Shown here piece by piece: positions 12,904-62,984 of a stretch of DNA of 64,000 nucleotides (position 1 is the stretch's first letter; every line of letters begins with the position of its first letter). Both the position numbers and the translations under genes were made by a program. The stretch spans positions 18,928 to 82,927 of the IMG/VR virus record IMGVR_UViG_3300010052_000153; one strand, written 5' to 3'. The notes under the pieces were generated by a model that worked only from the letters and a program-made list of their open reading frames with translations, ran no database searches and was not told where the DNA came from. Source of the stretch: a virus (Duplodnaviria > Caudoviricetes).

Positions 12904-13125
12904 CTAGTAGGGGCGACTGAAGCGCGCCCGGATGGCGTACCGTCGACGTCGTCCGGAGCACTGGCCCGAGTGGTAATCGATGAGCCGCTGCAACGCAGCC
13001 GTATCGGCCTTGTGATAGCGGATTTCGTCTTCGCCAAAGCGGACGACCTGCACACTGTCGCCAGTGATGATCGCAGTCAAAATGCCGGTTAGGCGCTCTG
13101 CCTCAGCGCAATGATCCACCATCAA
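12904..13125 (-). CDS. Head-tail adaptor (lambda gpW-like)
   Basis: 73 aa, VRFGEDEIRY, located between portal and protease. Confidence 0.7.
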   Translation of the reverse strand: MMVDHCAEAERLTGILTAIITGDSVQVVRFGEDEIRYHKADTAALQRLIDYHSGQCSGRRRRYAIRARFSRPY

Positions 13126-14729
13126 GCCGCCCTCCGACTAGAATTGTCGTTCGCCGGCTGCATGGCCGCGCCGTCAGGACCACCCCCGCCGGTCGATCGG
13201 CCGAAGGGAACTGGAATGCCTCGCTTCGTGAGGTCCGCGATTTCCGCTTCCTGCTTCTCGCGGAGCGCGGCGGCATCCTTGCCCATCAGCATCGCTTCGT
13301 CCTCAAGCGTTGATAGCCCGGTTTCGATGCGAACTTTCGCCGCCATTGCCGATTTATAGTCATCGGCTGTCGGCTGGGCCGGCCCTGCCCACTCTGCGTT
13401 GCAGACCTTCTCGCGGTTGGCCGCAAACGCCTCGTAGCCACCCTTGAACGGGATCCTACCAGCGCCAATCATCTCGTCTAGCCACGGGTCGTATGCGCCC
13501 TGGCAGAACGGCGCAACAATGCGCGTCCGCCTCCGCATCACTAGCGGCCAAATAGACGAGATCGCCATCCGCACCGAGGAGTAGTTTGCGTTGGAATGAT
13601 CCATCGCAAATGACTCGAAGGTCACACCCAACCGCCTCGCCATTTCGCGTTGCAGGTTTTGGCTGAACGGAATGTAGTTGCTGCCTGGCATCGACGTGGT
13701 GTGGAGTTCCAGCTCCTCACCCGGCCCAAGATGATTGATGCGGCCGTGGTCCGATAACGTGACGCCGTGGTCCTTCAGCGATGCAAGCCGCTGCTCCCAC
13801 ACTGCGAAGAGGTCATCGGCGAGCTCTGGCTCGTCGTCGGCCAATTCTCGAATGGCATCGAACGCTGCATCTGACGGCTCGGGCGACTTGATGGTTGCTG
13901 CGAACGCCGTCTGCAGGAGTGCCGTTGTCAACGTGGCGTCGGCGAGTTGGTCGTATTGGGCGGCCACCTTCAAGATGGGCGCCAAGACCGAGATGCCGCG
14001 CGGGCTGTCAGGGTTTTCACCGCGGTCAAACACGTGAATGACACGACGAAGCGGACCAGCCCATGCCGGGAGGTCAAAGTCGTAGTCCATTCCGCGCTGA
14101 CGGCCGACGAACCGATACTGGTACGGCCGACCGTTGTCGTCGTGGAAGATGCCTTGGTCGAGACCGAGGTACTCGTTGGTTTCCCGCTTCAAACGATGCG
14201 GTGCCACAAGCGAAACCTTGGTGCCGGTCTTTCCGCCGTAGCGACGACGCTGGCGTGCCGACATGTAGTCGACCACGCCGACCGCCTCACCGCCGGCCAG
14301 GTAATAGCGCATCACGCCGTCTAGGTGATCGGCCAGCGTGGAGACCCCGCGAAAATCATACTCGCGAGGATTCCAGACATGGAGGTTCCACTCTTGCTCG
14401 ACCAACTTGACCCATTCAGCGCGCTCCTTGTCATCGAAGCCCAGCGCCGACAGAACTGGCCGGGCCGACAACTTGATCTCATCGCCGATGGTGTCGGTAA
14501 TGATCTGGTCAGCGGCGCCAGCAAGCCATCCACTGTTCTGAATGATGTCCCATGCCAAGGCCGAGGCCCGCTCAGCGGCATTGCGGACGTTGTCCGAGCC
14601 GTCGCGCGTCACAGCGCGGCGCATCGACAAAATGCCACTGCCGTTCTCACGCAAATACTGCGACCGCGCCGGACGCCGCGTTGCCGCACCATGCGACGGA
14701 CGCCCCATGAGCCAATCAATGAACTTCAT
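13122..14729 (-). CDS. Portal protein (lambda family)
   Basis: RGISVLAPIL...DYSNANYSSVR-like motif; follows terminase; ends PANDNSSRRAA. Confidence 0.92.
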   Translation of the reverse strand: MKFIDWLMGRPSHGAATRRPARSQYLRENGSGILSMRRAVTRDGSDNVRNAAERASALAWDIIQNSGWLAGAADQIITDTIGDEIKLSARPVLSALGFDDKERAEWVKLVEQEWNLHVWNPREYDFRGVSTLADHLDGVMRYYLAGGEAVGVVDYMSARQRRRYGGKTGTKVSLVAPHRLKRETNEYLGLDQGIFHDDNGRPYQYRFVGRQRGMDYDFDLPAWAGPLRRVIHVFDRGENPDSPRGISVLAPILKVAAQYDQLADATLTTALLQTAFAATIKSPEPSDAAFDAIRELADDEPELADDLFAVWEQRLASLKDHGVTLSDHGRINHLGPGEELELHTTSMPGSNYIPFSQNLQREMARRLGVTFESFAMDHSNANYSSVRMAISSIWPLVMRRRTRIVAPFCQGAYDPWLDEMIGAGRIPFKGGYEAFAANREKVCNAEWAGPAQPTADDYKSAMAAKVRIETGLSTLEDEAMLMGKDAAALREKQEAEIADLTKRGIPVPFGRSTGGGGPDGAAMQPANDNSSRRAA

Positions 14730-16717
14730 CGGTAGGCTCCCCACCGTTCCCGTTTGCGCAGCCGCTTGCGTTGCGGCAGCAAAACTTCGGCCGCGTCATC
14801 GTCGACGGGTGGCACGTTGTCGTTTACGGGCACGTTCTCAGCCGCAGGCGCGACTTCTGGCGACGTTTCAGTTGTGTCGCCGTCTTCGGCTATCGCCCGC
14901 TGCATCTCGGCCCGTGAAGGTGGCGCTTTGTCCAACTTGATCGGCAGAGACATGCGTGCCGCCAGCGCCAACACCAAGCAGTCCCAGGCCTCGTTGCGGG
15001 CTCCGGTGGTCTTCTTCTGCCACGACCGTATCGGCTTGTTCTTGACGTACTTGACGACGGCATGCTCGGATGTGAGCTGCTCGAAATAGTCCGCGCTGAG
15101 GCCTATCGCCGGAAAGTGCACAGCGCGTGCGGTCGGCGCGTTCATGTCCGGAACGATCGCAAGCCTGGACGAGATGTCGTCCTTGGCCGTGTCCACGCCG
15201 ACAGTATAGATTTTGTCGCCCGTGTTCTTGGATCGCCCGGCCGTCTTCGGCCAGATCATGCGAGGCGCTTGCGGATTAGGATTTCCGCGACCGATGGTCG
15301 GATAGATCTTTCGCCGCTTTCGATCACGGCAGAATTTGTGCACCATCTCAGATCGGTGGCCCGCACTGTCGACACAGCCAGCCTTAGCGAAAAGCTTCCG
15401 CCCCTCGTCCGTCTCGCATGGTTCGGCAATCAGGCGATCAAAGCGTTCCCAAACCGGAGGCTTGGACGTGTCACCATGTAGCACTTCATGTCGGGCAACC
15501 CATGACTCGCTGTTCGCACCCCATCCGACGAACGTCACCTCAATGCGGTCGTCCTGAGTGTCCGCCCCGAAAGTCAGAAGGCGCACATCAGACGGCAACG
15601 TCTCGTGATTGTACGGTTCGCAGCGCGCCTTCAGAAGTTCAGGGTCGGTAACTTCGACCGCCTCCTCATAAGGAAGGCCGAGCACCAGGTTGATGAACGT
15701 CTGTTTGCGCTTCGGATCCTTGTAGACCTCGATCCATTCGGCAGCGAGGTGACGCCAAGCAGCATTCGGGAAAAGACTATAGGCTGACCAGATGTGAAAG
15801 CCCGCGTGCCCCTTCGACGGCTTCGAAGCCACCCACTCGCCAGCGTTAATCATCGCAAGCTTGTGATGCTCTTCAATCCGGCATCCGTCGCTTTCGCAAC
15901 GAAAGTATGCCGTCTCCGTTAGGTGTTCACCGGTCTCAGATTTGTCCCACTTCAGATTTTCCCACTTGAGGGTCTGCCTATGCCCGCAGTGCGGGCAAGG
16001 AACGTGGTAGTGCCTCTGGTCGCTAAGCTCCCATGATTTCTCAATGCGGCTGACGCCTTTTATGGTCGGCGTCGACCCCAACAGAATCTTCCTGTTCCAA
16101 AAGCTCTCGGTGCGCTTCGTGCCGAGCGCGATCTGGTCGCCCTCATCACCAGCGCCCTGCGCCGGATAGCCATCGACCTCGTCGAATGCGACGATGCGGG
16201 CTGTGATGCGACGGAAACCGCCTGGCGCGTTTGCACCGACGAACGCCACGGATGCGCCATTGCGAAACAGGCGCTTCTCGACGCGTTGCGATGCATCCTT
16301 AGACTTCAGATCACCGGCAATGGCCGCCAGCACCGGGGTGTCGCGCAGCATGGGCGCGACTTCCGTGCGGCTGTAGTCCTCGGCATCTTCGACGCGAGGC
16401 TGCACCACAAGAATTGGCGCCGGGTCTTGATGAATGAAGTAGCCGACAACGTGATCGAGGATCTTCGTGTAGCCAACGCGGGCTGACTTCTTTACCGTGA
16501 TCTTCTGCACGGACGGGTCGGTGACCGCGTCCATGATGCCGTCCTGATAGCGGAACGACTTGAACTTGCCCGCGTCGGCGCTCGTCTCAACGGAGAGGTA
16601 GGCGTACCTGTCCGCCCACTGGCTGACAGACAACTTCGGAGGAGGCTTTAAGGCCTCGTTGCCAGAACGGCGAAGCCTATCAAGGAGCCGGCTTGAACCG
16701 ACCTTGTATCGACTCAC
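14726..16717 (-). CDS. Terminase large subunit (lambda GpA family)
   Basis: KSARVGYTK, FDEVDGYP, STPT, CPHCG, NEAWDC motifs; probable GTG start at 16717. Confidence 0.95.
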   Translation of the reverse strand: MSRYKVGSSRLLDRLRRSGNEALKPPPKLSVSQWADRYAYLSVETSADAGKFKSFRYQDGIMDAVTDPSVQKITVKKSARVGYTKILDHVVGYFIHQDPAPILVVQPRVEDAEDYSRTEVAPMLRDTPVLAAIAGDLKSKDASQRVEKRLFRNGASVAFVGANAPGGFRRITARIVAFDEVDGYPAQGAGDEGDQIALGTKRTESFWNRKILLGSTPTIKGVSRIEKSWELSDQRHYHVPCPHCGHRQTLKWENLKWDKSETGEHLTETAYFRCESDGCRIEEHHKLAMINAGEWVASKPSKGHAGFHIWSAYSLFPNAAWRHLAAEWIEVYKDPKRKQTFINLVLGLPYEEAVEVTDPELLKARCEPYNHETLPSDVRLLTFGADTQDDRIEVTFVGWGANSESWVARHEVLHGDTSKPPVWERFDRLIAEPCETDEGRKLFAKAGCVDSAGHRSEMVHKFCRDRKRRKIYPTIGRGNPNPQAPRMIWPKTAGRSKNTGDKIYTVGVDTAKDDISSRLAIVPDMNAPTARAVHFPAIGLSADYFEQLTSEHAVVKYVKNKPIRSWQKKTTGARNEAWDCLVLALAARMSLPIKLDKAPPSRAEMQRAIAEDGDTTETSPEVAPAAENVPVNDNVPPVDDDAAEVLLPQRKRLRKRERWGAYR

Positions 16718-17255
16718 GGAGTACCCCGTAGTCGTCTTCCCGAGGTGCATCGATCGTCAACTCGTTCAAGGCGGCGATCACTTCCTCGTCAATCATCTCC
16801 TTGATTTCCTCGGCTGAACGCAGCGCCACGAGGCGCGGAGCAACCTTCGACCCGATGTTCAGGAGACGATTGCGCACCAGCGCCAATTCACTAGCGACCG
16901 CCACCACAACATCATCGATCTCCGCGACGGAGCCGGCTTGGCGGTCATACTCAAGCTGTTTCAGCAGGGCGGCATAGTTCTCTTTGACGCGTTCGGCGTC
17001 GGCCTTTGACAGCAGCGCCTGGCCGTTGGCGACCATGCGTGCGAAAGCTTCTTCGACACCTGTGTCATCATCGCCATCTGTTACCTCCGGTAACAGAATG
17101 CCCTGCTTGCGAAGAGCTTTGTCGGAAGCATCGAAGTCAACTTCGTCGTCTTCCGTGAAAACCAACAGACCGCGCTGTTTCCAACCGGTCACGGTCTTTC
17201 GCGAGACCTCTCGGTGCGCCGCATAGGCGGCTTGATTGCCGGTCTCGCCGTTCAA
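16680..17255 (-). CDS. Terminase small subunit (Nu1-like)
   Basis: N-terminal wHTH (QAAYAAHREVSRKTVTGWKQRG) plus coiled coil; overlaps TerL. Confidence 0.85.
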   Translation of the reverse strand: MNGETGNQAAYAAHREVSRKTVTGWKQRGLLVFTEDDEVDFDASDKALRKQGILLPEVTDGDDDTGVEEAFARMVANGQALLSKADAERVKENYAALLKQLEYDRQAGSVAEIDDVVVAVASELALVRNRLLNIGSKVAPRLVALRSAEEIKEMIDEEVIAALNELTIDAPREDDYGVLRESIQGRFKPAP

Positions 17256-18191: not shown

Positions 18192-18266
18192 TGGTCAAGG
18201 TGGTGGGACTAGAACCCACGTTCCGAGCTTCCAAAGCTCAGCGATTAGCCGCCATCTTCCACCCTG
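18192..18266 (-). tRNA. tRNA-Pro(TGG)
   Basis: CAGGGTG/CACCTTG acceptor stem, loop TTTGGAA, GGTTCTAGTCC T-arm, encoded CCA. Confidence 0.8.
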
Positions 18267-18541: not shown

Positions 18542-18618
18542 TGGTTGCGGGGGTCGGATTTGAACCGACGACCTCCAGCTTATGAGGCTGGCGAGCTACC
18601 GGGCTGCTCTACCCCGCA
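18542..18618 (-). tRNA. tRNA-Met(CAT) with initiator-like body
   Basis: TGCGGGGTAGAGCAGCCCGGTAGCTCGCCAGCCTCATAAGCTGGAGGTCGTCGGTTCAAATCCGACCCCCGCAACCA. Confidence 0.9.
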
Positions 18619-19100: not shown

Positions 19101-19838
19101 TTAAGCCGCTAAGTCATTCCGCGTGACTTCGCCGATAGTGTCGCGCACCGTCACCAGCGCCATATGGATGATGGCCCGACCTGCGCCCATCGCACCCGCC
19201 CTGTTGTTGATGCCGGCGGCATTGCCCACTTCCTGAAGCGTCGCGCCGTCGATGCACGCCATTTCGAAAGGTTCGCACAGATGACCTAACTTGGCCTGCA
19301 CGCGCGCAAGCTTCGCCTTGGCATCAATCATGTCGTTGACCGGCTTGTCTCCGTCCCATGCTTTCGGAACACGCACCGAGTTACGATTGGTGTCGGTTGC
19401 GTCATCAACAAAGGGCGGAACCTTCACTGTCGGTGGGATATTGACACCCGCAGCCGTCGACTGCCTCGCGTGCTTGTAGACGATGCGGCCATCTGGCTTG
19501 ACGTAGGTGTGGCGGTCGACGGCCATTCCATCGCCCAGGCTGACACCTTTGCCACCAAGCAGCGCCTCGGACTTTGCCTGCTCATATACCCGTCGATACG
19601 CCATCGCATACTTGAGCAGTTCGGTGTTGCCTTCGGCGAGCAGAGCTTTCGCCAGTGGCCAATCGATATTGTCGTTCGCTGCAGATCCGTTCCACTCGGC
19701 GCCGAACGACGCACGAGCGCCGAGACGCTTGCGCTGAGCCGCGCAGGCTGCCCGTTCGTGTCTCTGGTAGTCTTCGCGCGACATCCTGGCCACGGCCATC
19801 CGGCCGTTGTCATTGGCAGCCTGCATAGGTCTAGGCAT
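19101..19838 (-). CDS. Putative late transcription regulator (Q-like position)
   Basis: C-terminal HTH-like segment (CIDGATLQEVGNAAG); located between replication and late operons. Confidence 0.45.
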   Translation of the reverse strand: MPRPMQAANDNGRMAVARMSREDYQRHERAACAAQRKRLGARASFGAEWNGSAANDNIDWPLAKALLAEGNTELLKYAMAYRRVYEQAKSEALLGGKGVSLGDGMAVDRHTYVKPDGRIVYKHARQSTAAGVNIPPTVKVPPFVDDATDTNRNSVRVPKAWDGDKPVNDMIDAKAKLARVQAKLGHLCEPFEMACIDGATLQEVGNAAGINNRAGAMGAGRAIIHMALVTVRDTIGEVTRNDLAA

Positions 19839-19876: not shown

Positions 19877-20386
19877 TCAGGCGACGGACGTCGAGGGCGA
19901 TGATGAATTATCGTTGGATGTTATCCACGTGCGCACGAGCCGTTCCGCTTGATCGGCGGCATCAGAACGGTTGATGGCGCGAACAACGGCGACAGTGTGA
20001 CCCAAGGATTTTAGTGCACGATGGCGAGTGACCTGGCTCGGCAGAAGGGCGGCTTCGCCTACCTTGTTCTCAATGAAGGCCACACGGGCGCCCAGCAGAT
20101 AGACACGGACGTCGGGCTCACCCGCGGTCATTCCGGCAGCTATCGCTTGCGACCTCGCCTTGGGTCCACGACGTGCCGCATTCTGATCACCGGCGAGGAG
20201 GAACGTCTTGCCGTGTTCCGGCATCGCACGCAGCCGCTTGATCTGCTCGGCCTGCAACTCCCATTCCTCTGGCAGCGCCGGCTTAGTGGTGACCTTGCCG
20301 TTGGGGTTGGTTGTGATGGTGGTACGAACGCCGTTGACGCGGACGGTCTGCTGCGTGCGTCGGGTCGACGATTTGCGGTAGGGCAT
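19877..20386 (-). CDS. VRR-NUC domain nuclease
   Basis: AGEPDVRV...FIENKV...SQVTRHRALKSLGHTVAVV. Confidence 0.8.
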   Translation of the reverse strand: MPYRKSSTRRTQQTVRVNGVRTTITTNPNGKVTTKPALPEEWELQAEQIKRLRAMPEHGKTFLLAGDQNAARRGPKARSQAIAAGMTAGEPDVRVYLLGARVAFIENKVGEAALLPSQVTRHRALKSLGHTVAVVRAINRSDAADQAERLVRTWITSNDNSSSPSTSVA

Positions 20387-20426
20387 TGGGTGTCTTTCCG
20401 AATGCGATTTATAAGGTGGGCTTTCG

Positions 20427-20711
20427 GAAAGTCTGAAAGTCTGGATCGACATTCGTTCCGGAAAGTCTGAAAGGCGAAACCGGCATCCTTTCCAGAAAGT
20501 CGACTTTCTGATTTTTTAGCAGGAGAAAGTGTCGGAAAATCCTATAGGGGAATTTCCGACTTTCTACCTTTCGAGACTTTCCGACTTTCGCGAGATTTTC
20601 CGGGAGACTTTCGAAAGTCGACTTTCCGACTTTCCGGAGACTTTCGGGGAGACTTTCGAAAGTCTCTAAGCGAGACTTTCCGACTTTCCGGAGACTTTCT
20701 TAGAGACTTTC
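20427..20711. repeat. GACTTTC iteron-like cluster, candidate replication origin
   Basis: 13 copies of GACTTTC and 6 of its complement GAAAGTC in 285 bp, including AAAGTCGACTTT palindromes. Confidence 0.7.
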
Positions 20712-21299: not shown

Positions 21300-24200
21300 T
21301 TAGATAAAGTCGGTAGCGTCGATCGTACCGGAGAAGCCGGTGATCTCAACCAAGCCTTCACCGGCGTCCAGCGTGCCGTCACCGTCCACGTCCTGGATGA
21401 TCCAGGAGCGACCGAAGAGATCGCCAGCATTCGCGGTGATGATCTGCACGTCGTTGGCCGCAGCTGTAGCGAGCAGAGCGTCGATATCCGCAGTGAACGA
21501 CGCCGCGCTGATGCCGCCCTGAGCCTCAGCAATGACCGCACCAATAGCGTTGGCGAAGTCAATGGTATCATCGTCGAAGTTCATGTCGGTGATGGTGTCG
21601 GTCGCTGCCGTCTGGGTAGCCAGAGTAGCACCGCCGCCAGCGAGCGAACCCGTCACATTGAACGTGTCGTCGCCTGCACCGCCAGTCAGAACGTCCGCAC
21701 CAGCCCCACCGTTGATGGTGTCGTCGCCGCCACCGCCGATGATGGTATCGATGCCGCCGCCGCCCGTGATGTTCAGGCGGAGGAACGGATTGGTCACCTG
21801 GCTGGCATCGACTTCGAGCTGAGTCGTAGCCGCAGGAACGATCTCGTTGTCACGAGCTTCGATCGTCAGGGTCTCCTCAAGGCCAGCCGAAGCCGTCTGC
21901 GAGGTGTTTACCAGACGCTCAACCGTTGCATCATCGAGCTGCAGGACGGAAGTCTGGATCGCTGCAGTGTCGTTGGTGAACAGCAGCTTTCCGACGTTCG
22001 AGATGTTGGCAAGGTCGCCGACAGTCACGACAGCCGAATTGCGGACTTCGATGATGTCGAGGTTCGCAAGGTTCGACGGAGCGTTGCCTGCACCAAGGAA
22101 CATGCCGCCATCAATCACGGCCATGCCATTGATGTTGGCGTCGGCCAGGATGAAGCGATCCGACTCGATCGTAGCACCTTCAGCACCATCGAAGGTGAAG
22201 CTGTGCTGTGCGTCGAGGCCGCGGGCGTCGATCGTGATACCGTTATTGGCGAAGCCAAGGCCAGTACCCGTATCGTTGACACCGTCAGACAGGTCGTTGT
22301 CGTTGATGATGTTGACCACTCGGCCACCAGCGACATCAACGCCATTGCGGTTGATCATGTCGTTCGTGAGCAGAATGTTCTGAGCATTCTCGCCGTACTC
22401 GGTGTTGTCACCATCAGCGTCCTTGTCGTTGGCAGCAACGCCCACGCCAGCGAAACGGATGTACTCGAAGCCGGACACGTTGGTCCACTCCGACGCACCA
22501 AGGATCAGCTGCTTGCCATCGCCATCAAACAGGATGGTGTCAGTGCCTTCGCCAGCGGTGACAGTGTCGCTGATCGTCAGACCGGCGGTGCTGTCATTAC
22601 GCAGATCGAAGATGACCGTGTCGTTACCCTTGCCGAACAGCAGCGACTGTCCACCGCCAGGCTGCGCAGCGCCATCGGCGTTGCGGAGAGTGTCGACGCG
22701 CAGAACGATGTCCCCGAGATAGGTAGAGCCATCGAACTTGGCGCCGCTGAAGCGGTCCATGTTCGGGCCGCTGGTTAGCACGTTCGCCGTATGACCAACG
22801 CCGCCGGCAGCATCGAACGGGCTCTGCGCGCTAGGATCATTGGCAAGGCCAGACTGATCCAGGTCGTAGGTGCCGCCGAAACCGCCGAAGCCGCCCGAGT
22901 CACGCGTATCGAAGTTCATGTAGGTGCCAGCAACACCACCGGTCAGCGTCAGCGTGCCGGTGATATCCGTCAAGCCACCGCCCTTGGCGTCGGTTGCGAT
23001 TGCACCAGCGCCGAGCCGAACGGAGTTGGATTCCGAGTCGGTGTCGTTGATGGTGATGTTCTCAACGCCAGAAGTCTGGAGCTGAACGTTGAAGCGCGGG
23101 TCAGTGTTGATGCCCCGGTCTTCGTCATCAGCCTGATCAGTGATGTTCAGCTTGACAGTGTCGCTAGCCGTGTTGGTAGCCAACTGAGCAACGATGATGT
23201 TGCTGTCGATGCCATTGCTGCCAGTCGTGGAGTGCTGGACGGTGATCGCCTGAGCAAGCTCAGCCGACAGCTTCGTCAGGTGGGTGGTCAACTGCTCCGT
23301 CGCCGAAGTCCACGGACCGACGAAGTCCTGACCTTCGTTGCGGATCGTCACATCCTTGAGACCAGTGAAGAGCGACGTGTCAACCTTGATCAGGTCCGCA
23401 GCCGTGCCGAAGTCTTGGCCGCCACGAATGTCAAGATGCTCCAAGTTGGAGAAGCTGCCCTTGGTGACGCCAGCATAAACCTGCAGCGTATCCTCACCGC
23501 CGCCGCCGTCAACGACGTCACCGGCGCTATCTGCAACCGCCTGAAGACGGATGATGTCGTCCTGTGCTGTACCCGTAACCTTGAGGTCAACAGGGGCACC
23601 CGACGTGCCGTCCTTGGAGGCGCTGATTTCGTCGCCGATCGTAATATCGAGCGAGCCGGTGAGCGCAGAGGCATTGATCTCGCTCAGCGAGCCAGCAACG
23701 TTGTCCAGACCGGCGCCGTGACGAATAGCCTCGAGCTGGCCCGACGGACGAACGACATCGTCAGTGGTTCCGAGGGCGAGGTCCTGGTCACCCGAAATAT
23801 TGACAGTCCGAATGTCCTCGCCAGAAATGTAACCGACGGCGTTGGCCGAACCAGTCGACTTCAGGTTGAGGGTCTCGAAGCCCTGCGAACCGTTGCCGTC
23901 CACGAAGATGTCTTCGAGGGTGACGTTGTTCACAGTCAGGTTGGCAATATCGGTCTCGCCCTGAAGGGCCTTGTCCACGAAGAAGAAGTGAACGTGGCTA
24001 TTCTCGTCGTTGGAGTCGGTAACCGACAGATTGATGCCAGAGGCAGGCGCCTCCTGAATGTTGTAGGCTTCGAACAGGTTACCATCAACGCCACTAACGT
24101 TGATGTTCTTAACGCCCGTGGAATCCTGGAAATCCAGATAGCCGTCGAAGTTCAGGCGAACATCGACGTTAACCGTCTCGACGCCCTTAAGGGTCGGGTT

Positions 24201-25001
24201 GATGTCGTTGTCGCCGGTGTCAGCGTCGTTGACGAAGGTGAAGTTCAGGGTCGGGTTGGTGCCCGTGCCGGTGAGAACGTCATCGTCGTTCAGCGTGTTG
24301 ACCTGGTCGGTGCCGCCCGGGGTGAAGCCGCGCGCTGCGGTGAACACGTTGCCCGAAACGATGTCGGTGCCTTCGGTCAGACGGATGCCGGTATCCGGAT
24401 CGTCCTGGTCGAAGTGCGTGCCATCAGCCGTCTCGATCGGCGTGAACACAGCGCCGTTGGTCGGCAGCTGGGCCGAACCGTCGTCGATGGCAGCGCGGAG
24501 ATCGTTCACCGCATCGCCGAGACCAGCGTCTTCCGTGACGAGGATCTTGAGCAGCGAGGCGAGACCGACGATGGCAGCGCCATCCGGGCCAGCAACGCCG
24601 CGCTCGGCGGCAACGCGGGCATAAAAGTCCTGCGCTTCAGCGCGGGTGAAGAAGGCACGGCCTTCGGCAGTCTGATTTGCCGACGGAACGTAGGCGTCAT
24701 AGATAGCGCCCAGCTTGTCCGACAGCGTCGCGGCGCCGGCCGTGATCGCCTGGAACTTGGCGAGAGCAGCCGGGTTGCCCTGAACCAACGCGTTGGTCAG
24801 GTTGATGAAGATGTTTTCCTGGTTGAACGTGATGCTCGGGTTGTTCGAGCCGAAGTTCGTCGACTTCGCGTTGTTGATCAGGAAGACGAAGCCGTCGATG
24901 GAGGGGACGCCTCCAAGCAGGACCTCATAAGCAGCAGCGATGCCCGAAAAGGCATCTTGGTTCGCGTCTACAAGCGCGTCCAATTCAGCTAGGGTTGCCA
25001 T
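21300..25001 (-). CDS. S-layer / RTX-like beta-strand surface protein (1233 aa)
   Basis: No signal peptide; helical N-terminus; T/D/G/N-rich beta repeats; GGxGxD Ca-binding repeats near the C-terminus (GGGGIDTI, GGGGDDTI, GGAGADVL, GGAGDDTF); strong codon bias. Confidence 0.75.
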   Translation of the reverse strand: MATLAELDALVDANQDAFSGIAAAYEVLLGGVPSIDGFVFLINNAKSTNFGSNNPSITFNQENIFINLTNALVQGNPAALAKFQAITAGAATLSDKLGAIYDAYVPSANQTAEGRAFFTRAEAQDFYARVAAERGVAGPDGAAIVGLASLLKILVTEDAGLGDAVNDLRAAIDDGSAQLPTNGAVFTPIETADGTHFDQDDPDTGIRLTEGTDIVSGNVFTAARGFTPGGTDQVNTLNDDDVLTGTGTNPTLNFTFVNDADTGDNDINPTLKGVETVNVDVRLNFDGYLDFQDSTGVKNINVSGVDGNLFEAYNIQEAPASGINLSVTDSNDENSHVHFFFVDKALQGETDIANLTVNNVTLEDIFVDGNGSQGFETLNLKSTGSANAVGYISGEDIRTVNISGDQDLALGTTDDVVRPSGQLEAIRHGAGLDNVAGSLSEINASALTGSLDITIGDEISASKDGTSGAPVDLKVTGTAQDDIIRLQAVADSAGDVVDGGGGEDTLQVYAGVTKGSFSNLEHLDIRGGQDFGTAADLIKVDTSLFTGLKDVTIRNEGQDFVGPWTSATEQLTTHLTKLSAELAQAITVQHSTTGSNGIDSNIIVAQLATNTASDTVKLNITDQADDEDRGINTDPRFNVQLQTSGVENITINDTDSESNSVRLGAGAIATDAKGGGLTDITGTLTLTGGVAGTYMNFDTRDSGGFGGFGGTYDLDQSGLANDPSAQSPFDAAGGVGHTANVLTSGPNMDRFSGAKFDGSTYLGDIVLRVDTLRNADGAAQPGGGQSLLFGKGNDTVIFDLRNDSTAGLTISDTVTAGEGTDTILFDGDGKQLILGASEWTNVSGFEYIRFAGVGVAANDKDADGDNTEYGENAQNILLTNDMINRNGVDVAGGRVVNIINDNDLSDGVNDTGTGLGFANNGITIDARGLDAQHSFTFDGAEGATIESDRFILADANINGMAVIDGGMFLGAGNAPSNLANLDIIEVRNSAVVTVGDLANISNVGKLLFTNDTAAIQTSVLQLDDATVERLVNTSQTASAGLEETLTIEARDNEIVPAATTQLEVDASQVTNPFLRLNITGGGGIDTIIGGGGDDTINGGAGADVLTGGAGDDTFNVTGSLAGGGATLATQTAATDTITDMNFDDDTIDFANAIGAVIAEAQGGISAASFTADIDALLATAAANDVQIITANAGDLFGRSWIIQDVDGDGTLDAGEGLVEITGFSGTIDATDFI

Positions 25002-26912: not shown

Positions 26913-27283
26913 TTCAGCCGCCCCGTGTCCTCATTGCTAACCCGGGCTAGGGCGCGCTCCAGCAGCCACGGCAGTTCGAACGGACTGGCGACATAAACGA
27001 ACTCCTCGCCATCCAGGATGGCGAGGAGGAACTCGCTTTCGACATTCGGGCCATCCGCCGCCGGAAGCGGCGCGAACCAGACCGGCGCGGTCACGTCCTT
27101 GTCTTTCCATCCTATCTGCTCGAAGAGGTCGGATGCCTCCGTCAAACGGTCGGCGATATCGGAGCGGATGCTCTCCAGATACTCCTCCCCATTGTCGATC
27201 TCGAAATAGCTTTCGAGAAGCGTTTTGGCATCGAGCCAGCCGTTCAGGAAGAAATGCCGGACCTTGTATGCGTAGAGGGTCAT
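26909..27283 (-). CDS. Hypothetical protein
   Basis: MTLYAYKVRH start coupled (ATGA) to the SRAP stop. Confidence 0.55.
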   Translation of the reverse strand: MTLYAYKVRHFFLNGWLDAKTLLESYFEIDNGEEYLESIRSDIADRLTEASDLFEQIGWKDKDVTAPVWFAPLPAADGPNVESEFLLAILDGEEFVYVASPFELPWLLERALARVSNEDTGRLN

Positions 27284-28023
27284 GCTGCGATCACCTCTGG
27301 CGCCGGCACGATCTGCAGCAGATCGTCCGGAAGCGGCCGCTGGAGGGCCCTCGCCTGCTCCCAAGGCGCCGTGAGCCACAGCTCGACCTCTTCGCGGGTC
27401 GTGAGGATCACGGGCATTGCCTTTTCGTGGATCGGGCCGACGACGCCGTTGGGCTCCGTTGTGAGGAAGGCATAGAGGTCGGCTTTGATTAGGCCTTCGC
27501 GGACCTTCCGCACGCTTTCCCATTGCGGCAACCAGAGCCCGGCGAAGAAGAATAGCGGTCGGTCCCCATTGAGGGCGAACCAGGCGTTGGGCATGCGCTC
27601 ACCCTCGACTTTGCTCTTCGGGTCCGGCTCGGCGAAGCTGGTGACGGGCACAACGGCGCGGTTCTCTATGCCCAGCCAGCGTTGCCAGTGCTTGCTGCTC
27701 GTGTTCCTTATGTTGGTCGTACCGCCATCGGGCTCCATCCGCAGGAGATCGTTGAAGGCGTCCCTGTCGATGGCGCGACCCTTCGCCCGCAGCTTGTCGG
27801 CGCGCTTCGACGTCGCGTCCATAAGCGCCTTGGATGACGAGGGCATGCCCCATCGCGTAAGGGCGAGCTCGCGGACGCCGTCGGTACCGTTCCGCACGAT
27901 TGGCGCCGAATAGTCCGGGTAGACGTCCTGGGACGGCACCAGGTTGCCAACCATGTCCCGGAAGTAGCCGGAAAGCGCGCGGATCGCCTCCTGGTTGGTG
28001 GAGTGGTTGTAAAGGTTGCACAT
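27280..28023 (-). CDS. SOS response-associated peptidase (SRAP/YedK/HMCES family)
   Basis: MCNLY N-terminal Cys, RWGMP, VPVTSFAEP, FFAGLW, IHEKAMPVIL. Confidence 0.9.
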   Translation of the reverse strand: MCNLYNHSTNQEAIRALSGYFRDMVGNLVPSQDVYPDYSAPIVRNGTDGVRELALTRWGMPSSSKALMDATSKRADKLRAKGRAIDRDAFNDLLRMEPDGGTTNIRNTSSKHWQRWLGIENRAVVPVTSFAEPDPKSKVEGERMPNAWFALNGDRPLFFFAGLWLPQWESVRKVREGLIKADLYAFLTTEPNGVVGPIHEKAMPVILTTREEVELWLTAPWEQARALQRPLPDDLLQIVPAPEVIAA

Positions 28024-28086
28024 GCCGTGGTGGCCCTTGTTGGGAAGAGAGTCATAGACTCGGCAGTTGACTCCTACAAGGAATTT

Positions 28087-28101
28087 GTTCTCTCTCCGTT
28101 C
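28087..28101. promoter_or_regulatory. Alphaproteobacterial LexA (SOS) box
   Basis: GTTC-TCTCTCC-GTTC (GTTC-N7-GTTC) between the divergent SRAP gene and 28104 gene. Confidence 0.75.
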
Positions 28102-28103
28102 CC

Positions 28104-28442
28104 ATGCCCGAACCATATTGGCCGAAGCGGAAAGTCTCCTTCACGTTGATGGATGCGCACAAGGCGGGCGTCCTGCTGCGCGCGTTTTGCCGATATGACA
28201 AACAGGAGCGCTTCTTCCTGCCGGTCGACCTCGCGAAACTGTACGGCGACGTTGAGGTCGACGACGTCATGTATCTGATGAAATGCCGATGTGGACGCAG
28301 TTTGGATGTGGGAGGCGCCTATCTCACGGCCGAGCAGAAGCAGACGGTCAAGGTGCGTAGACTGCTCAAGGTCTATTACCAGCGACGATCGGTGTGGGAG
28401 GACGTGCCATACGTCAGCATAAAGATTCGCGATGAAGGCTAG
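28104..28442 (+). CDS. Zn-ribbon-like hypothetical protein
   Basis: RAFCRYDK...MKCRCG; divergent from SRAP. Confidence 0.6.
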   Translation: MPEPYWPKRKVSFTLMDAHKAGVLLRAFCRYDKQERFFLPVDLAKLYGDVEVDDVMYLMKCRCGRSLDVGGAYLTAEQKQTVKVRRLLKVYYQRRSVWEDVPYVSIKIRDEG

Positions 28443-28799: not shown

Positions 28800-31121
28800 C
28801 TACGCCGCTGCCGGCAGCACCACCTTCGCCGGCTTACCGGTCCGGGTTGGCACGTAATCGTCAACCAATACGCCTTGATCGATGAGCGTTTTCAGCATTC
28901 GTGTCATGCGCTTCTTTTCGCCTTTGTCTTCAGCATCCACGCCAAGCACCCGTGCGATTGCGGCCCCAGCCCACGGTTTGCCCTGCGGCGCCGACTTCCA
29001 TTCTTCACCGTTGCGAAGGACGTTCTTCAAGTCGGCGAGGTTCTGGTCGGTTAAACCCTCCATGATCTTGTCCGCGCCGGGCCAAGGGAACTCGTCGACC
29101 ACACCTGCCGTGTCCGACACACCGCCGCCAAGGTTTCCAGTGCCACCCTTCCCCGGTCTAACCCCGCCATTCCCCAAGCTCACGGTCTCCAGTTTCCGCC
29201 ACTTCAAGCCGCCCGACATTTTGGTCAGATTCGACTTGCCTTGGGTGATGCTGAAGTAGCTGAAGCGCTCGTCGGTGCGCACCATGGCTTCGACCGCTTG
29301 TTCTTCCGTCATACGGTTCAACACGCGCACGGAACGGGCAGCCCCGATAAGCGACACAGCGCCGCGCGCATCTTCGACGGTTGCTTCTCGGTCGGCGACC
29401 TTTCGAAGGTGATGCACGACATCGATGGAGCAGTTGGTGTAGTCAGCGATCTGTGCCCAAAGCTTGGCGACCTTGTCGATGGCGCCATTGTCATTTTCGT
29501 TGACGCCGTGGGTCGACACAAAAGGATCGATGATCATGACATCGATGCCATTCCGCTCGATTAGTTCGACAATGGCTTCAACCACAGGGACAACGATTTT
29601 CACGCCCTCTCGCTTGTCCTCTTTGGCGACGACCAGTTCCTGCTCGCGACCGGTGTCGAGAAACAGACGGCCTTCGAAGTCTGCGGGTTTCAGCTTGTAA
29701 TGCAGGCACGCCGCCATGATGCGACGTTCCATTTCGTCACGTGGATCCTCCGCGTTAAACAGCCACACCTTGCGCTGTGGCGCCGCATCCATTCGCAGAA
29801 TGCGCTTGCCGGATGTCATCGATAGCGCCTCGGCGATGCTGTTGCTGGTTTTGCCAAGGCCACCTGGCGACACCGTCACCGACACGTATTTGCGGATGTA
29901 GTGCGTGCCAAAAACGAAGTCGCGCCGCGGCAATGTGGCGGGATCGATCCATTTAAAGGGCGTGATGAAGATGGGCTGAGCAGACGAGGTGGTGCTTTCT
30001 TCCAACACTTCCGGTTGGACAGCGGGTAAAGTGTTGGAAGTCGTGTCCACGTCCGAAGTTTGTGTGGATTCTTCGGACATGGACGGTGTCGCAGTGATGA
30101 TGCGAACACCATCGCTTTCGCCGCGCTTGGCGCGCGCCTTCGCCAGACCGCGTTCGATCATCTCGCTAATGTCGACAAGGCGCGTATTGTCGTTTGCGGC
30201 GAACTGCGACTCAGGAATGTGGCGTGGCTGCCGCTGTCCGGCGTCAAGCCCGCGCTTAATCTTCGCTCGCGTTTCGCGCTCGCCGTCTGTCTGCGCCACA
30301 CCGCAGGCGATCGCGGCTTCATAGAGCTGATGTTCGGCAGTCCCTCGCTCCAGCACACCAGCGCCGACCAACTGGCCTAGATTGAAGGCGCTGCGGTTCA
30401 GCTGGTAGCCACGCCCGCCCTGCCCTGTCGTTGCAAGGTCATTTAGCTCCGCTTCGACGGCGCGTTCGACGTATGGCGTGTTTCTTCCGGGAGTATGCGT
30501 GTAGGCGCTCGTCGGCGCGGGCGTACGTTCTCGTGGGAGCACTAAGTCGAGTAGCCATTGTGGGGCATCCGCTATAGGCGTGCTGTCCATATGGTGACCG
30601 TCCAGCCAAGCATATTGACGGCCATCGGCCACGCGGCTGCCTGGTGCAATGATGTACCCGCCATCGCCACGCACGTCCACCGCGATGCCAAGTCCGCCGC
30701 GATTGCGAACCCCATCGACATGCCGAAAGAAGACATGCGTACCGCCCCCCATGGTTTTTGCACGGGCCGTCGTCGGGAGCGCACCATGCTTCGCTTCCAT
30801 GTCGGCAAGCCAGTCATGGCCATCCCCGATGCCCGGCTTGATGTCCAGATCGAGAACCCATGCACCGATAGGAGCGCCGGTGGGCACTGCGGTCATCGCG
30901 TCGGGTTGGCGTTTCCACCATTCGCGAATTATGCGCTCGGTCTTGCTCGCGCCTCGAAAACCGTTCGGCGTGTATGGCGTCTTCGGCGCAAGGAATTCGC
31001 CCGTGTTGGGGTCCATCTCCTCTTTCGCGCGGGCCGGAAAGACCGGCCAACCACGCGCGATGTAGGAAAGTGCGAGGCACAATGGGGATTCCGTGTCGGC
31101 AACTTTTTCCACTTTTTCCAT
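28800..31121 (-). CDS. Bifunctional primase-polymerase fused to AAA_25/RepA-like helicase
   Basis: GWPVFP...WVLDLD...GGTHVFF...DVRGDGGYIIAPGS; Walker A SPGGLGKT; IIDPFVSTH. Confidence 0.9.
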   Translation of the reverse strand: MEKVEKVADTESPLCLALSYIARGWPVFPARAKEEMDPNTGEFLAPKTPYTPNGFRGASKTERIIREWWKRQPDAMTAVPTGAPIGAWVLDLDIKPGIGDGHDWLADMEAKHGALPTTARAKTMGGGTHVFFRHVDGVRNRGGLGIAVDVRGDGGYIIAPGSRVADGRQYAWLDGHHMDSTPIADAPQWLLDLVLPRERTPAPTSAYTHTPGRNTPYVERAVEAELNDLATTGQGGRGYQLNRSAFNLGQLVGAGVLERGTAEHQLYEAAIACGVAQTDGERETRAKIKRGLDAGQRQPRHIPESQFAANDNTRLVDISEMIERGLAKARAKRGESDGVRIITATPSMSEESTQTSDVDTTSNTLPAVQPEVLEESTTSSAQPIFITPFKWIDPATLPRRDFVFGTHYIRKYVSVTVSPGGLGKTSNSIAEALSMTSGKRILRMDAAPQRKVWLFNAEDPRDEMERRIMAACLHYKLKPADFEGRLFLDTGREQELVVAKEDKREGVKIVVPVVEAIVELIERNGIDVMIIDPFVSTHGVNENDNGAIDKVAKLWAQIADYTNCSIDVVHHLRKVADREATVEDARGAVSLIGAARSVRVLNRMTEEQAVEAMVRTDERFSYFSITQGKSNLTKMSGGLKWRKLETVSLGNGGVRPGKGGTGNLGGGVSDTAGVVDEFPWPGADKIMEGLTDQNLADLKNVLRNGEEWKSAPQGKPWAGAAIARVLGVDAEDKGEKKRMTRMLKTLIDQGVLVDDYVPTRTGKPAKVVLPAAA

Positions 31122-31133
31122 TCTAGAGCCCTT

Positions 31134-31149
31134 TACACACGCGTGTGTA
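31134..31149. promoter_or_regulatory. Perfect 16-bp palindrome, candidate HicB operator
   Basis: TACACACGCGTGTGTA upstream of hicA. Confidence 0.55.
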
Positions 31150-31185
31150 TTGTGTATATGTGTGTAGTCAATTAGGATGAATTCG

Positions 31186-31395
31186 ATGCCTAGACCAAAA
31201 CACCCATTGAAGCCCCGCGAACTGGTGAAGATGCTCAAGGCTGACGGATGGGTGTGGAAGCGCAATGGCCCCGGCGACCATGTCCAGTATGTTCACCCAA
31301 CGAAACCGGGGCGGGCATCGGTTGACATGGGTGCGCGGGAGATACCACTTGGCACCCTTCGGCAAATCTACAGAAGCATTGGATGGGATTGGTAA
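31186..31395 (+). CDS. hicA: HicA mRNA interferase toxin
   Basis: LKADGW...GDHVQYVHPTKPG...IPLGTLRQI. Confidence 0.88.
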   Translation: MPRPKHPLKPRELVKMLKADGWVWKRNGPGDHVQYVHPTKPGRASVDMGAREIPLGTLRQIYRSIGWDW

Positions 31396-31810: not shown

Positions 31811-31854
31811 GCGGAGGAAGCGCAGAGGAATATTGTCGTTGTCAGCGTGCGGAA

Positions 31855-44009: not shown

Positions 44010-44217
44010 TCTCAAACGTCTCCAGGTGCGGAGGGTATAAGGCCGATAGTGCTGTGACGAGTTCGGCCAGGTTTTGCAGGGGCACGGCGACTAGGTCGCT
44101 GTCCTGCTCGATGCTCACGGAGTCACCCCCGTATCCGAGCTTCACCCTGATATCGCTCCAGCGATAGTCAGGGCCACACCGCACCACAGTGGGCGCGGCG
44201 TCCGTGTGCGGGGTCAC
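43975..44217 (-). CDS. Hypothetical protein
   Basis: 80 aa coupled ORF. Confidence 0.4.
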   Translation of the reverse strand: MTPHTDAAPTVVRCGPDYRWSDIRVKLGYGGDSVSIEQDSDLVAVPLQNLAELVTALSALYPPHLETFENGQFWQNIYRG

Positions 44218-45005
44218 GCGGCCGCCTTTTTCTCGCCGCCATTGTCGTTCGCCGGCAACCAGAATTTGCTTACGTCTGCGTAGCCGTTGCCCTTCACATA
44301 CTTGATCGTGTCGGGCATGCTGTAGCGGTTCTTAGCAACATATCCTGCGCCTTCGGCGAGATGAATCTGCCGTTCCTTGCCGCCTTCAGCATGGGCCACG
44401 GTCTTTTTTGGACCAACCTCTTTCTCCTTCAGGGAGACGCGATAGTTCATGAACGCGACGATATCGGCCTGTTCCCGCACCAGTGCATTGCCGCGCTTGT
44501 GCAGCTTCGGCGTATAGCGGCTGTAGGGGTCTGTCGTCGGGCTGTCGAACCGGATGATTTCCGGGTGGGCAAGCATCACGACATGCATGCCTGAGGCCGC
44601 CAATGCAGAAACGCCGCTAAGGAAGTCGCGCCACTCGTTGTCGGCTTCAACATAGCCCTTGCCGAAGCCAGGCTCCTCGATGCTACTAACGCCAAGACGT
44701 GCTGCGGTTGCAGCCCAAATGAGTGGCTCCAACCCGTCCAGGCTGTCGATGATGACCGTCTTGAGGTCGTGCCCGCCTTCAAGCAATTCGCCGATGACAT
44801 TGATGATGTCGTTGAAAGACTCGATCGTGCCCGGCGTCGGGATATCTACGCCCTTCGGCGCGCGTTCACCCTCTGTCGGCAGGTAGATCGGCGACGGAAA
44901 CTCTGCCGCGAAACTGGTCTTTCCGATGCCATCGACGCCGTAGACCAGCATGATGGGCGGGTTGATCGACGTGCTCGATTTCAAGCTCTTGATGGAAATT
45001 GCCAC
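44214..45005 (-). CDS. AAA_24 / Sak4-like ATPase
   Basis: YGVDGIGKT, VIIDSLD, LAH, AKNRY. Confidence 0.85.
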   Translation of the reverse strand: MAISIKSLKSSTSINPPIMLVYGVDGIGKTSFAAEFPSPIYLPTEGERAPKGVDIPTPGTIESFNDIINVIGELLEGGHDLKTVIIDSLDGLEPLIWAATAARLGVSSIEEPGFGKGYVEADNEWRDFLSGVSALAASGMHVVMLAHPEIIRFDSPTTDPYSRYTPKLHKRGNALVREQADIVAFMNYRVSLKEKEVGPKKTVAHAEGGKERQIHLAEGAGYVAKNRYSMPDTIKYVKGNGYADVSKFWLPANDNGGEKKAAA

Positions 45006-60562: not shown

Positions 60563-60565
60563 GCG

Positions 60566-61223: not shown

Positions 61224-61257
61224 GCCGAGAGTCTAATTATTCTCGGGAGAATAATCT

Positions 61258-62187
61258 ATGAAAAAGTGGGCGTACTACAATGACGTTGACCCGGCGGCGT
61301 GCGCCGTCACACGCGAACTAATCAAGCGCGGCGTCATCTGTGACGGTGAAGTCGATCAACGATCAATCAAAGAGGTTCAGCCCGAAGATGTCGCTCCATT
61401 TACCCAAGCTCACTTCTTCTGCGGAGGAAGTCTCTGGTCCGTCGCAGCCCGACTTGCCGGATGGCCAGATGACCGACCTCTTTGGACAGGAAGCTGCCCT
61501 TGCCAGCCGTTCAGCCAAGCCGGCAAGAGGCTCGGAGCCGATGATCCAAGGCATCTGTGGCCGGACTTTTATCGGCTCATCCGTGCCTCCCGGCCCCCTA
61601 TCGTCATGGGAGAGCAGGTTGCGGGAAAGGCTGGCCGCGCTTGGTTCAACGGAGTCCGCTCTAATATGGCGGGAAGCGGCTATGCCTCAAGGGCCGTCGA
61701 TATCCCGGCTTGCGCCGTCGACAGTCCACAGCAACGGAACCGCATCTATTGGCTCGCGCTGGCCAACAGCGCAGGCCAGAGACCATATGCCCCCGCACAC
61801 CCCGGAATACATTGCCGCGAAGAAAGCCCAGGGCCATGGGATGGCGAACTTGAACGACTATATGGCGCTGACAGCCAGATGGCCGACAGCGACAGTGGCG
61901 GACGTGACAGGCGGGAGGAAACATCGAAGTGGAGCACGGTCGAACGAACTACTGCTCAACGGCCTAATGGTTCTTGGTGGTCGGACGCAGAATGGACAAA
62001 ATGTCACGACGGCAAGCTCCGCCGCGCCAAACCCGGAATTCCCCTTTTGGTTGATGGGCTTCCCGGACGAGTGGATTTATGGCGCGTTGCAGGCAATGCA
62101 ATCTCTCCAGTACTAGCTTCTGAAGTAATCGCCGCCTTCATGGATGTCTACGGCCTGCCCGAGCTTGATCGGAGGGACGCCGCATGA
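61258..62187 (+). CDS. C5 cytosine DNA methyltransferase
   Basis: WTGSCPCQPFSQAG, GEQV, QRNRIYW, AGNAI. Confidence 0.88.
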   Translation: MKKWAYYNDVDPAACAVTRELIKRGVICDGEVDQRSIKEVQPEDVAPFTQAHFFCGGSLWSVAARLAGWPDDRPLWTGSCPCQPFSQAGKRLGADDPRHLWPDFYRLIRASRPPIVMGEQVAGKAGRAWFNGVRSNMAGSGYASRAVDIPACAVDSPQQRNRIYWLALANSAGQRPYAPAHPGIHCREESPGPWDGELERLYGADSQMADSDSGGRDRREETSKWSTVERTTAQRPNGSWWSDAEWTKCHDGKLRRAKPGIPLLVDGLPGRVDLWRVAGNAISPVLASEVIAAFMDVYGLPELDRRDAA

Positions 62188-62242
62188 CCCCCACCCCCGA
62201 CCGAGACGCACATGGCGAAGAGGCGCGGGAGGCACACAAGCC

Positions 62243-62602
62243 ATGAGGGTCGTCACCGAACCTGAGTTTCAAGCCCGCATGCGCGAGTGCATGGCTTCGG
62301 TTGACCTAACCGAAATCGGCTCCGTTACCGGGCCAGGTCGGTCGGGCGCGGTTGCGGCTGTCTATGCTTCCCACATCTTGGGCGTGCCGTTCGTACCATA
62401 TGGGTCTAAGGCGCCGGCTCTTGGCCGGATGCTGATCGTCGACACGGCGCGTGAAAGCGGACGAACCCTACGCAAGGCGGCACGTCGGTATGCCAACGAC
62501 AACCCGGTGGTGATCGTGGCCTTCGAAGAACCGCCGCGTGTCTCCTTTTGGTACGAGGCGCGAAAGCCTCAGCACTACAGATATGAGAGGATCGCAGCAT
62601 GA
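62243..62602 (+). CDS. Phosphoribosyltransferase-like small protein
   Basis: GPGRSGAVAA...MLIVDTARESGRTL resembles the PRPP-binding loop. Confidence 0.5.
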   Translation: MRVVTEPEFQARMRECMASVDLTEIGSVTGPGRSGAVAAVYASHILGVPFVPYGSKAPALGRMLIVDTARESGRTLRKAARRYANDNPVVIVAFEEPPRVSFWYEARKPQHYRYERIAA

Positions 62603-62630
62603 CCAAGTCTGGTCTCGACAGAGTGCGTCC

Positions 62631-62984
62631 ATGACGCCAGCTAACGACAATAGACCTCTCGACAAGGTCTACACCCTCGCCGAAGCTGCTGAAGCCCTTC
62701 GAATGACCACTCGAGGCATTATCAAAGTGGCCAAGCGACACGGTCTCTGCATGGTGAATGGTCGCCACATCACATTCACAACTTCACAATTGGCCGGAAT
62801 TCAGGAGGCTATGACTTGGGACTCAAGTTGCTCAAGCGCGGAAGGACGTATTACGTCCGCGGGACGGTTAGCAGTACCGGACAGGACGGAAAGCGGAAAA
62901 GCATCCGCGTCTTCAAAACTACGGGCACTGGCGATCGCACGCTCGCAGAGGCGATCCGGATCAAAACTGAAAAGCGCATCCTAG
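62631..62984 (+). CDS. Excisionase / HTH_17-like protein
   Basis: VYTLAEAAEALRMT; overlaps the integrase start. Confidence 0.7.
   Translation: MTPANDNRPLDKVYTLAEAAEALRMTTRGIIKVAKRHGLCMVNGRHITFTTSQLAGIQEAMTWDSSCSSAEGRITSAGRLAVPDRTESGKASASSKLRALAIARSQRRSGSKLKSAS

Follow-up and report, generated by a model that had tools for sequence, protein, structure and literature searches.

The 64,000-nucleotide stretch analysed here (the window) forms the end of one 82,927-bp provirus record, IMGVR_UViG_3300010052_000153. A short peptide with the consensus [A/P]-A-N-D-N-x-P recurs in about 20 proteins of this provirus, namely enzymes that handle DNA or nucleotides, regulators, the portal and the terminase. 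Our analysis suggests, with a probability of roughly 0.55, that [A/P]-A-N-D-N is a selected short linear motif that copies the head of the host ssrA tag, the peptide specified by transfer-messenger RNA (tmRNA), and through which the carriers would bind the adaptor SspB and be degraded by ClpXP. In six proteins of the genome this head and a carboxyl-terminal Ala-Ala at the native distance appear to make up a complete tag that is written into the gene. That the phage mimics the alphaproteobacterial ssrA tag at the peptide level, as put forward in a preliminary description made from the letters of the window, is well supported by the frame-locking and codon use of the motif, its link to Ala-Ala ends, its spacing, its convergence, and the tags and SspB of the hosts. 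The provirus is that of a temperate phage whose bacterial host group is Rhizobium-type; its nearest relatives are prophages in Devosia, Aurantimonas, Ahrensia and a Rhizobiales bacterium, the best genome matches being just 72-75% identical.

Frequency, reading frame and codon use of the motif

NDN occurs 25 times in the called proteome where 2.1-2.4 copies are expected (12-fold), the maximum among 2000 within-protein shuffles being 10, and ANDN occurs 15 times against an expectation of 0.25 (60-fold), which makes it the top-ranking tetrapeptide. That the motif is a product of chance, or a compositional artefact of low-complexity tails rich in Ala, Asn and Asp, is refuted by these shuffles, which come nowhere near the observed counts, and we give this explanation practically no weight; control tripeptides (such as DNN, NND, NEN and QDN) occur 4- to 20-fold less often in the phage family. 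A few individual copies are probably chance, i.e. INDND in an RTX protein, ENDN in an AAA domain and TNDN in a Helicase_C domain. The peptides quoted in the preliminary description were all found where it had placed them, although its counts for two genes needed correction: the helicase, given as two copies plus one in the intein, contains five NDN (two in the intein region, one in Helicase_C and two in the tail), and the primase, listed once, has two NDN sites.

At the nucleotide level the whole 82,927-bp genome contains 37 AAYGAYAAY sites, 32 of them on the minus strand, and 31 of the 37 lie on the sense strand and in the coding frame. By a cruder comparison against longest open reading frames (ORFs), the longest frame holds 28 of the 32 sites of the minus strand, against an expectation of one third (binomial p=3e-10). 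Six-frame translation of the window gives 29 NDN sites, 25 of which are on the minus strand, and the 24-kb virion module has no AAYGAYAAY site at all (p=3e-6).

A repeat acting in DNA or RNA (a protein binding site, an antitermination signal or a Chi-like site), with the peptide as a by-product, would fit the strand-specific abundance of the motif core AACGACAA, the commonest 8-mer, whose complement TTGTCGTT is the top 8-mer of the window. It would also fit the codon use at the motif in the phage genome, where GAC (28/32) and the first AAC (27/32) exceed background and the third codon is AAT in 17/32, and the two copies that lie outside a coding frame. Against this stand the frame-locking of the sites, their variable spacing to neighbouring gene starts, and the synonymous codons used across the family: among 473 distinct in-frame instances, AAC is used for the first Asn in 63% and for the second in 67% (background 63%), all four Ala codons are in use, and only GAC is somewhat favoured (79% vs 59% background). 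The third-position variation on which the preliminary description relied is modest in the phage genome itself and background-like across the relatives. Two unrelated proteins, the sigma-70 family protein and the Xis-position protein, both start with MTPANDNRP, which their genes encode with synonymous differences at five of the nine codons. Since the sites are frame-locked, synonymous codons vary and this pair differs at so many codons, the sequences indicate that selection acts on the peptide; a DNA- or RNA-level signal was rejected on the same grounds and strikes us as very improbable.

The six out-of-frame or antisense copies (31832, 47705, 37983, 59169, and genome positions 7298 and 7993) fit the chance expectation of roughly 1-2.5 per strand, so that no RNA role is required. 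The preliminary description had considered such a role for the two apparently non-coding copies; that at 31832 lies 3' of a stop in another frame and that at 47705 lies off the longest frame, and a function for either was rejected, the number of such copies being that of chance.

Ala-Ala ends and spacing

Proteins ending in Ala-Ala make up 15 of 95 in the phage by greedy gene calls and 20 of the 81 ORFs of at least 100 residues in the longest-ORF list, and 11 of these 20 contain NDN (Fisher p=0.002). The same association is seen in the relatives, in which 230 of 1111 ORFs (21%) end in AA, 119 of the 230 with NDN (odds ratio 4.3, p=1.6e-20, a nominal value for related sequences), and 26% of ORFs carry NDN; the corresponding figures for control phages sharing the terminase only are 3.8% for the AA end and 1.9% for NDN. 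In six tails of the phage, those of the portal, the PAPS-reductase-domain protein, the Cas4-type exonuclease, the Sak4-like protein, the repair exonuclease and the RNA ligase, NDN is followed by four to seven residues and a terminal AA. NDN lies 6-10 residues from the end in 81 distinct family tails, of which 58 have a terminal AA; in no family tail does it lie 0-3 residues from the end. The native host tags have NDN 8-9 residues from the end, which the 6-10 residues of the complete phage mimics match, and near-complete tags are found among the tails of relatives (AANDNFESAAVAA, AANDNFEPGAIAA, VANDNNAEIANAA and SANDNYAAKAAA). An AA end is still present in 75 of the 154 family proteins whose NDN lies over 40 residues away from it.

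Host tags and SspB

The tmRNA tags found with ARAGORN in five host genomes of related prophages (ANDNYAEARLAA, ANDNNAKEYALAA, ANDNKAQGYALAA, the last of these twice, and ANDNNKAPVALAA) all begin with ANDN, identical to the head of the phage motif, and take the form ANDN...LAA. An SspB-family gene (PF04386 above cut-off) is present in all five genomes, and the Agrobacterium SspB protein, which is that of structure 2NYS, matches the Caulobacter SspB structures 2QAS and 2QAZ (E about 1e-31). No SspB-like gene was found in the 82,927-bp phage genome. In four of the five host genomes sspB lies within about 1 kb of the tmRNA gene.

The ssrA tag of Caulobacter is AANDNFAEEFAVAA (PMC9393093), and in E. 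coli the first seven tag residues are bound by SspB and the C-terminal residues by ClpX (PMC9963277). By analogy, the phage motif would copy the invariant head of the host tag, the part bound by SspB, and the Ala-Ala end of the carriers would correspond to the part bound by ClpX. Native tags terminate in LAA or VAA. The alphaproteobacterial SspB reportedly hands tagged proteins to ClpXP (Lessner et al., 2007; Chien et al., 2007). Judged from these sequences, the motif probably ties its carriers to the host SspB-ClpXP protease.

Comparison with the host background, proposed in the preliminary description alongside that with shuffled proteomes, also gave an enrichment. The pattern GCNAAYGAYAAY has 24-37 matches per genome in three host genomes, of which 10-13 fall on a single prophage stretch of ~60 kb and one more is the tmRNA gene itself, and the density of the motif in the prophage is ~50-fold that of the remaining genome. 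A general property of the host proteome was rejected as an explanation, given this clustering of the 12-mer pattern in the prophage regions of all three.

Relatives, phage 16-3 and convergence

Eighty loci recruited via the Sak4-like protein contain 0.2-1.4 sites/kb (mostly 0.4-0.9), nearly all on the sense strand, and include prophages of Agrobacterium, Rhizobium, Brucella/Ochrobactrum, Falsochrobactrum, Devosia, Ahrensia and Pseudaminobacter, a Roseobacter metagenome-assembled genome and many IMG/VR records. Eighty loci recruited via the terminase have almost no motif. NDN was not found in the tails of 43 distinct lambda-type portal homologues, including the closest ones, which have the preceding GPDGAA stretch in common, nor was the VNDNVP of TerL found in the TerL homologues compared. 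Inheritance of the motif with the virion module was rejected on the strength of the 80 almost motif-free TerL-related loci and the 43 portals.

The cultured Rhizobium phage 16-3, whose Sak4 is 69% identical, has 22 AAYGAYAAY sites, all but one of which (in a 28-codon frame) fall in ORFs whose stops match annotated genes. Its carriers include the portal (ending ANDNQEDEAEAA), the repair exonuclease (AANDNVPASERRVA), the Cas4 exonuclease (AANDNEPGSTKA), two methylases, the helicase, with tandem copies before a terminal DDEVPF, and Xis (MRVAANDN), and TAANDNIAWPL in its protein p107 is the counterpart of SAANDNIDWPL in our protein 19101-19838. The portals of the two phages belong to different families (PF04860 in 16-3, PF05136 here) with no significant similarity, and ANDN-x5-7-AA ends are common to both. 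Sequence comparison of this kind indicates that the motif arose convergently in unrelated proteins.

On a tree of 60 Sak4 orthologues built with the tails left out, the NDN-tail state changes at least eight times and the AA end is kept in 49 of the 60; the sister orthologue of our Sak4-like protein ends WLPEAA where the phage copy ends WLPANDNGGEKKAAA. For these reasons the AA-terminated tail looks to be the more stable element, to which the ANDN head is a labile addition.

The motif tends to sit in flexible termini and linkers. A stop codon follows within 35 codons for 17 of the 37 sites, three sites are N-terminal, and others, interdomain by Pfam, lie in the primase linker and between sigma regions 2 and 4. 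C-terminal tails vary in length and sequence among orthologues. In a model of the Sak4-like protein (31 orthologues; mean predicted local distance difference test score, pLDDT, 81), residues 252-263, which form the PANDNGGEKKAAA tail, have pLDDT <50 and no secondary structure; an accessible, disordered tail is therefore predicted for this one modelled protein.

Proposed mechanism and alternative partners

In the mechanism that we favour, host SspB would dock on ANDN and tether the phage protein to ClpXP, which would then engage the Ala-Ala end or another degron. Early and packaging proteins would be short-lived unless assembled or protected, and virion proteins would stay stable; the portal and the terminase would be included since unassembled copies must not linger. 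The preliminary description had likewise proposed that SspB/ClpXP times the turnover of these proteins, or else that the motif titrates SspB, and both proposals are plausible.

Several observations weigh against degradation through SspB and ClpXP. About half of the motif carriers, among them TerL, the helicase, the SSB-like protein and one methylase, have no AA end, and in some proteins the motif is N-terminal or internal. After NDN the phage family favours x-Pro (Pro in 37% at +2), where host tags have Ala or Lys. The family statistics come from related sequences, because of which their p-values overstate independence; the tags and SspB were read in hosts of related prophages; and ANDN as the SspB-binding determinant rests on the E. 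coli model together with what Chien and colleagues reportedly found in 2007. The x-Pro context, the many head-only carriers and the tandem copies in the SSB-like protein and helicase leave room for other readings.

The tandem copies bear on one of these in particular. Orthologues of the SSB-like protein likewise carry tandem ANDN ahead of RPWG, helicase orthologues carry it ahead of DDIPF, and relatives of the methylase end in QxDLFGxAA. SspB docking might serve mainly to saturate SspB/ClpXP, protecting other proteins or blocking clearance of tmRNA-tagged ones, by way of many copies on carriers that are probably abundant, such as the SSB-like protein and the helicase, or the SspB dimer might be a hub that gathers replication proteins. 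Half of the carriers would then need no AA end, the tandem copies would naturally be followed by RPWG or DDIPF instead of AA, and it would suit a hub that the motif often adjoins other hub-binding motifs (the clamp-binding-like QxDLF and the SSB-tip-like DDIPF). The strong link between NDN and AA, which persists beyond 40 residues from the end, and the existence of complete tags at native spacing argue otherwise, and we hold saturation or scaffolding to be distinctly improbable as the main role.

The endings themselves deserve description. The helicase C-terminus (37333-37350), DDLRAMDDIPF, looks like the C-terminal tip of SSB (DDDIPF), and its orthologues in the relatives and phage 16-3 end in D[DE][DE][IV]PF, always preceded by one or two ANDN copies. 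In the SSB-like protein and its orthologues the tandem ANDN is followed by a conserved RPWG(K/AKK) end that may be another terminal motif. The methylase at 35058-36425 ends ANDNLPLFGAMG and the tails of its relatives follow Q[AP][DS]LFG[DV]AA, resembling a beta-clamp-binding motif; a beta clamp with all three Pfam clamp domains is encoded by the phage (42036-43223), as it is in phage 16-3.

It is also conceivable, if unlikely, that ANDN(xP) docks on a partner other than SspB, from the phage itself or from among the other hubs of the host, the ssrA likeness being coincidental or partial and Ala-Ala an independent ClpX degron. The preferred ANDN-x-P context, which is unlike that of native tags, and the occurrence of the motif at N-termini, in linkers and ahead of other binding motifs would be accounted for in this way. 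The proposal has to contend with the four to five residues that match the invariant head of every host tag checked and with the co-occurrence of AA at native spacing; no candidate for such a partner was identified, and no SspB-like phage gene was found.

More tentatively, and with the odds still against it, the sequences would allow the 16-3 group as a whole, temperate phages of alphaproteobacteria, to take hold of their early proteins in general through SspB. Complete tags would set protein lifetimes, and head-only or tandem copies on abundant replication proteins would jam host tag clearance or employ the SspB dimer as a scaffold.

Motif sites and neighbouring genes

The positions of the motif in the window are given in Table 1. 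Genes lie on the minus strand between ~13 and 52 kb of the window and on the plus strand beyond. Gene names were verified by Pfam and PHROGs, by which the packaging genes are a lambda-type portal and a gpA-type terminase; the names 'late regulator' and 'Xis' in the preliminary description rest on position and weak similarity only. Replication genes comprise a Prim-Pol/AAA primase, an intein-split helicase, the beta clamp, the SSB-like protein and the Sak4-like AAA_24 protein, and further genes encode the Cas4-type exonuclease, two DNA methylases, the PAPS-reductase-domain protein, the sigma-70 family protein and an integrase (62816-64000) that continues past the contig end. Over the initial 19 kb of the genome, virion genes come after those for a dNMP kinase, an HD phosphatase, the repair exonuclease and the RNA ligase.

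Table 1. Positions of the NDN-containing motif in the window, with the genes that carry it.
Protein or feature	Gene	Motif	Strand	Sequence and context
Portal (PF05136)	13122-14744	13143-13151	-	C-terminal PANDNSSRRAA; full tag mimic
TerL	14726-16750	14816-14824	-	VNDNVP in C-terminal tail, 29 residues before end
Protein 19101-19838	19101-19838	19806-19814	-	N-terminal MPRPMQAANDN; end LAA
Protein 19101-19838, second motif	19101-19838	19668-19676	-	SAANDNIDWPL
VRR-NUC-like endonuclease	19877-20452	19907-19915	-	Tail SNDNSSSPSTSVA
Prim-Pol/AAA_25 primase	28800-31265	30186-30194	-	FAANDNTR in interdomain linker; end PAAA
Primase, second site	28800-31265	29487	-	ENDN within AAA domain; may be chance
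Out-of-frame copy		31832-31840	-	Directly 3' of stop of conserved gene 31855-32199; outside the system, chance level
DNA methylase	32196-32996	32217-32225	-	Tail AANDNKHLVAE
PAPS-reductase-domain protein	34116-34820	34140-34148	-	Tail PANDNAPERVAA; full tag mimic
DNA methylase	35058-36425	35085-35093	-	Tail AANDNLPLFGAMG; motif, then clamp-binding-like LPLFG
Helicase	37333-40152	37399-37431	-	Tandem ADNDN...ADNDN in C-terminal tail, then terminal DDIPF
Helicase, intein region	37333-40152	39976, 39685	-	
Helicase, Helicase_C	37333-40152	38179	-	
Sigma-70 family protein	40163-40651	40637-40645	-	N-terminal MTPANDNRP; end FAA
Sigma-70 family protein, second motif	40163-40651	40388-40396	-	VANDNSP between regions 2 and 4
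Cas4-domain exonuclease	40654-41610	40681-40689	-	Tail AANDNAREMEAAA; full tag mimic
SSB-like protein (PHROG 2300/6015)	43395-44015	43476-43508	-	Tandem PANDNGRQSANDNRQ in C-terminal tail
Sak4-like AAA_24 protein	44214-45005	44241-44249	-	Tail PANDNGGEKKAAA; full tag mimic
Copy in repeat-array region		47705-47713	-	Outside longest frame; probably chance
Protein 62144-62602	62144-62602	62495-62503	+	YANDNP, 32 residues before end; end IAA
Xis-position protein, overlapping integrase gene	62631-62984	62643-62651	+	N-terminal MTPANDNRP

The intein of the helicase has Hint and LAGLIDADG domains and spans residues ~34-320, with ANDN motifs at residues 57 and 154. Genes for tRNA-Pro(TGG) and tRNA-Met(CAT) lie at 18192-18266 and 18542-18618, between the terminase and the early region. 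A 1233-residue protein with RTX calcium-binding repeats is encoded at 21300-25001, and an SRAP (SOS response associated peptidase) domain protein, with an Ala-Ala end and without ANDN, at 27280-28116. A repeat of at least 22 nucleotides (CGGGCACGCATCTGCCGCTGGC) occurs in eight copies at 47590-49984.

Relation to known systems

The phage version resembles the native ssrA tag in its (A)ANDN head, its Ala-Ala carboxyl end, the head-to-end distance of the complete mimics, its unstructured C-terminus and the presence of an SspB orthologue in the hosts. It differs in being encoded in the gene, where the native tag is added by trans-translation, in the middle of the tag, which is not conserved and often starts with x-Pro, and in where the head occurs, since it can also stand by itself, be present as a tandem, or lie at an N-terminus or within a linker.

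For mycobacteriophages with integration-dependent immunity, ssrA-like tags hard-coded at the C-termini of the integrase and repressor have been described (Broussard et al., 2013, as presented in PMC9635641). There too a temperate phage encodes a tag-like C-terminus that makes its own proteins substrates of a ClpXP-type protease; in that system, as far as that account presents it, two regulatory proteins have the ClpX-binding end only and the repressor tag is removed by integration, whereas here ~20 proteins of many functions have a putative adaptor-binding head. Lambda O and MuA are classic ClpX substrates. These two and Mu repressor variants are phage proteins of replication and transposition that ClpX recognises via terminal peptide signals (PMC8138137 and general knowledge), but each has one signal, particular to that protein, and none is known to copy the SspB-binding head.

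Viral mimicry of host hubs by short linear motifs shares with the present case short convergent motifs, disordered tails and fast gain and loss between close relatives, and the same phage tails also hold the clamp-binding-like QxDLF and the SSB-tip-like DDIPF; the difference is that the presumed target is a protease adaptor and that the motif extends across much of the early proteome. Our literature searches (phage ANDN or ssrA degrons, SspB mimicry, phage 16-3 with ClpX or tmRNA) returned no description of an adaptor-binding head spread through a phage proteome. Thus ssrA-like C-termini on a few phage proteins are known, and what appears to be new is the candidate adaptor-binding head across the proteome of a phage.

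ClpXP-mediated regulated proteolysis has a central place in the cell biology of alphaproteobacteria, and to our knowledge few natural SspB clients have been described besides tmRNA-tagged proteins. If mimicry of the ssrA head functions as we propose, this phage group would schedule or limit some 20 of its own proteins by borrowing the quality-control tag of the host, which would account for the absence of the motif from virion proteins and for its presence in the portal and terminase. The dozens of natural tag variants with different spacers would be a ready series for the study of the hand-off from adaptor to protease, and phage 16-3 with Sinorhizobium meliloti is a classic genetic system in which the idea is directly testable. 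Were SspB in fact a general handle on the early proteome, a bacterial virus would for the first time be seen to deploy an adaptor-binding degron module naturally and proteome-wide, and natural SspB clients without an ssrA tag would for the first time be available as a large set. If the motifs work as inferred, mimicry through short linear motifs is something that bacterial phages practise across a whole proteome.

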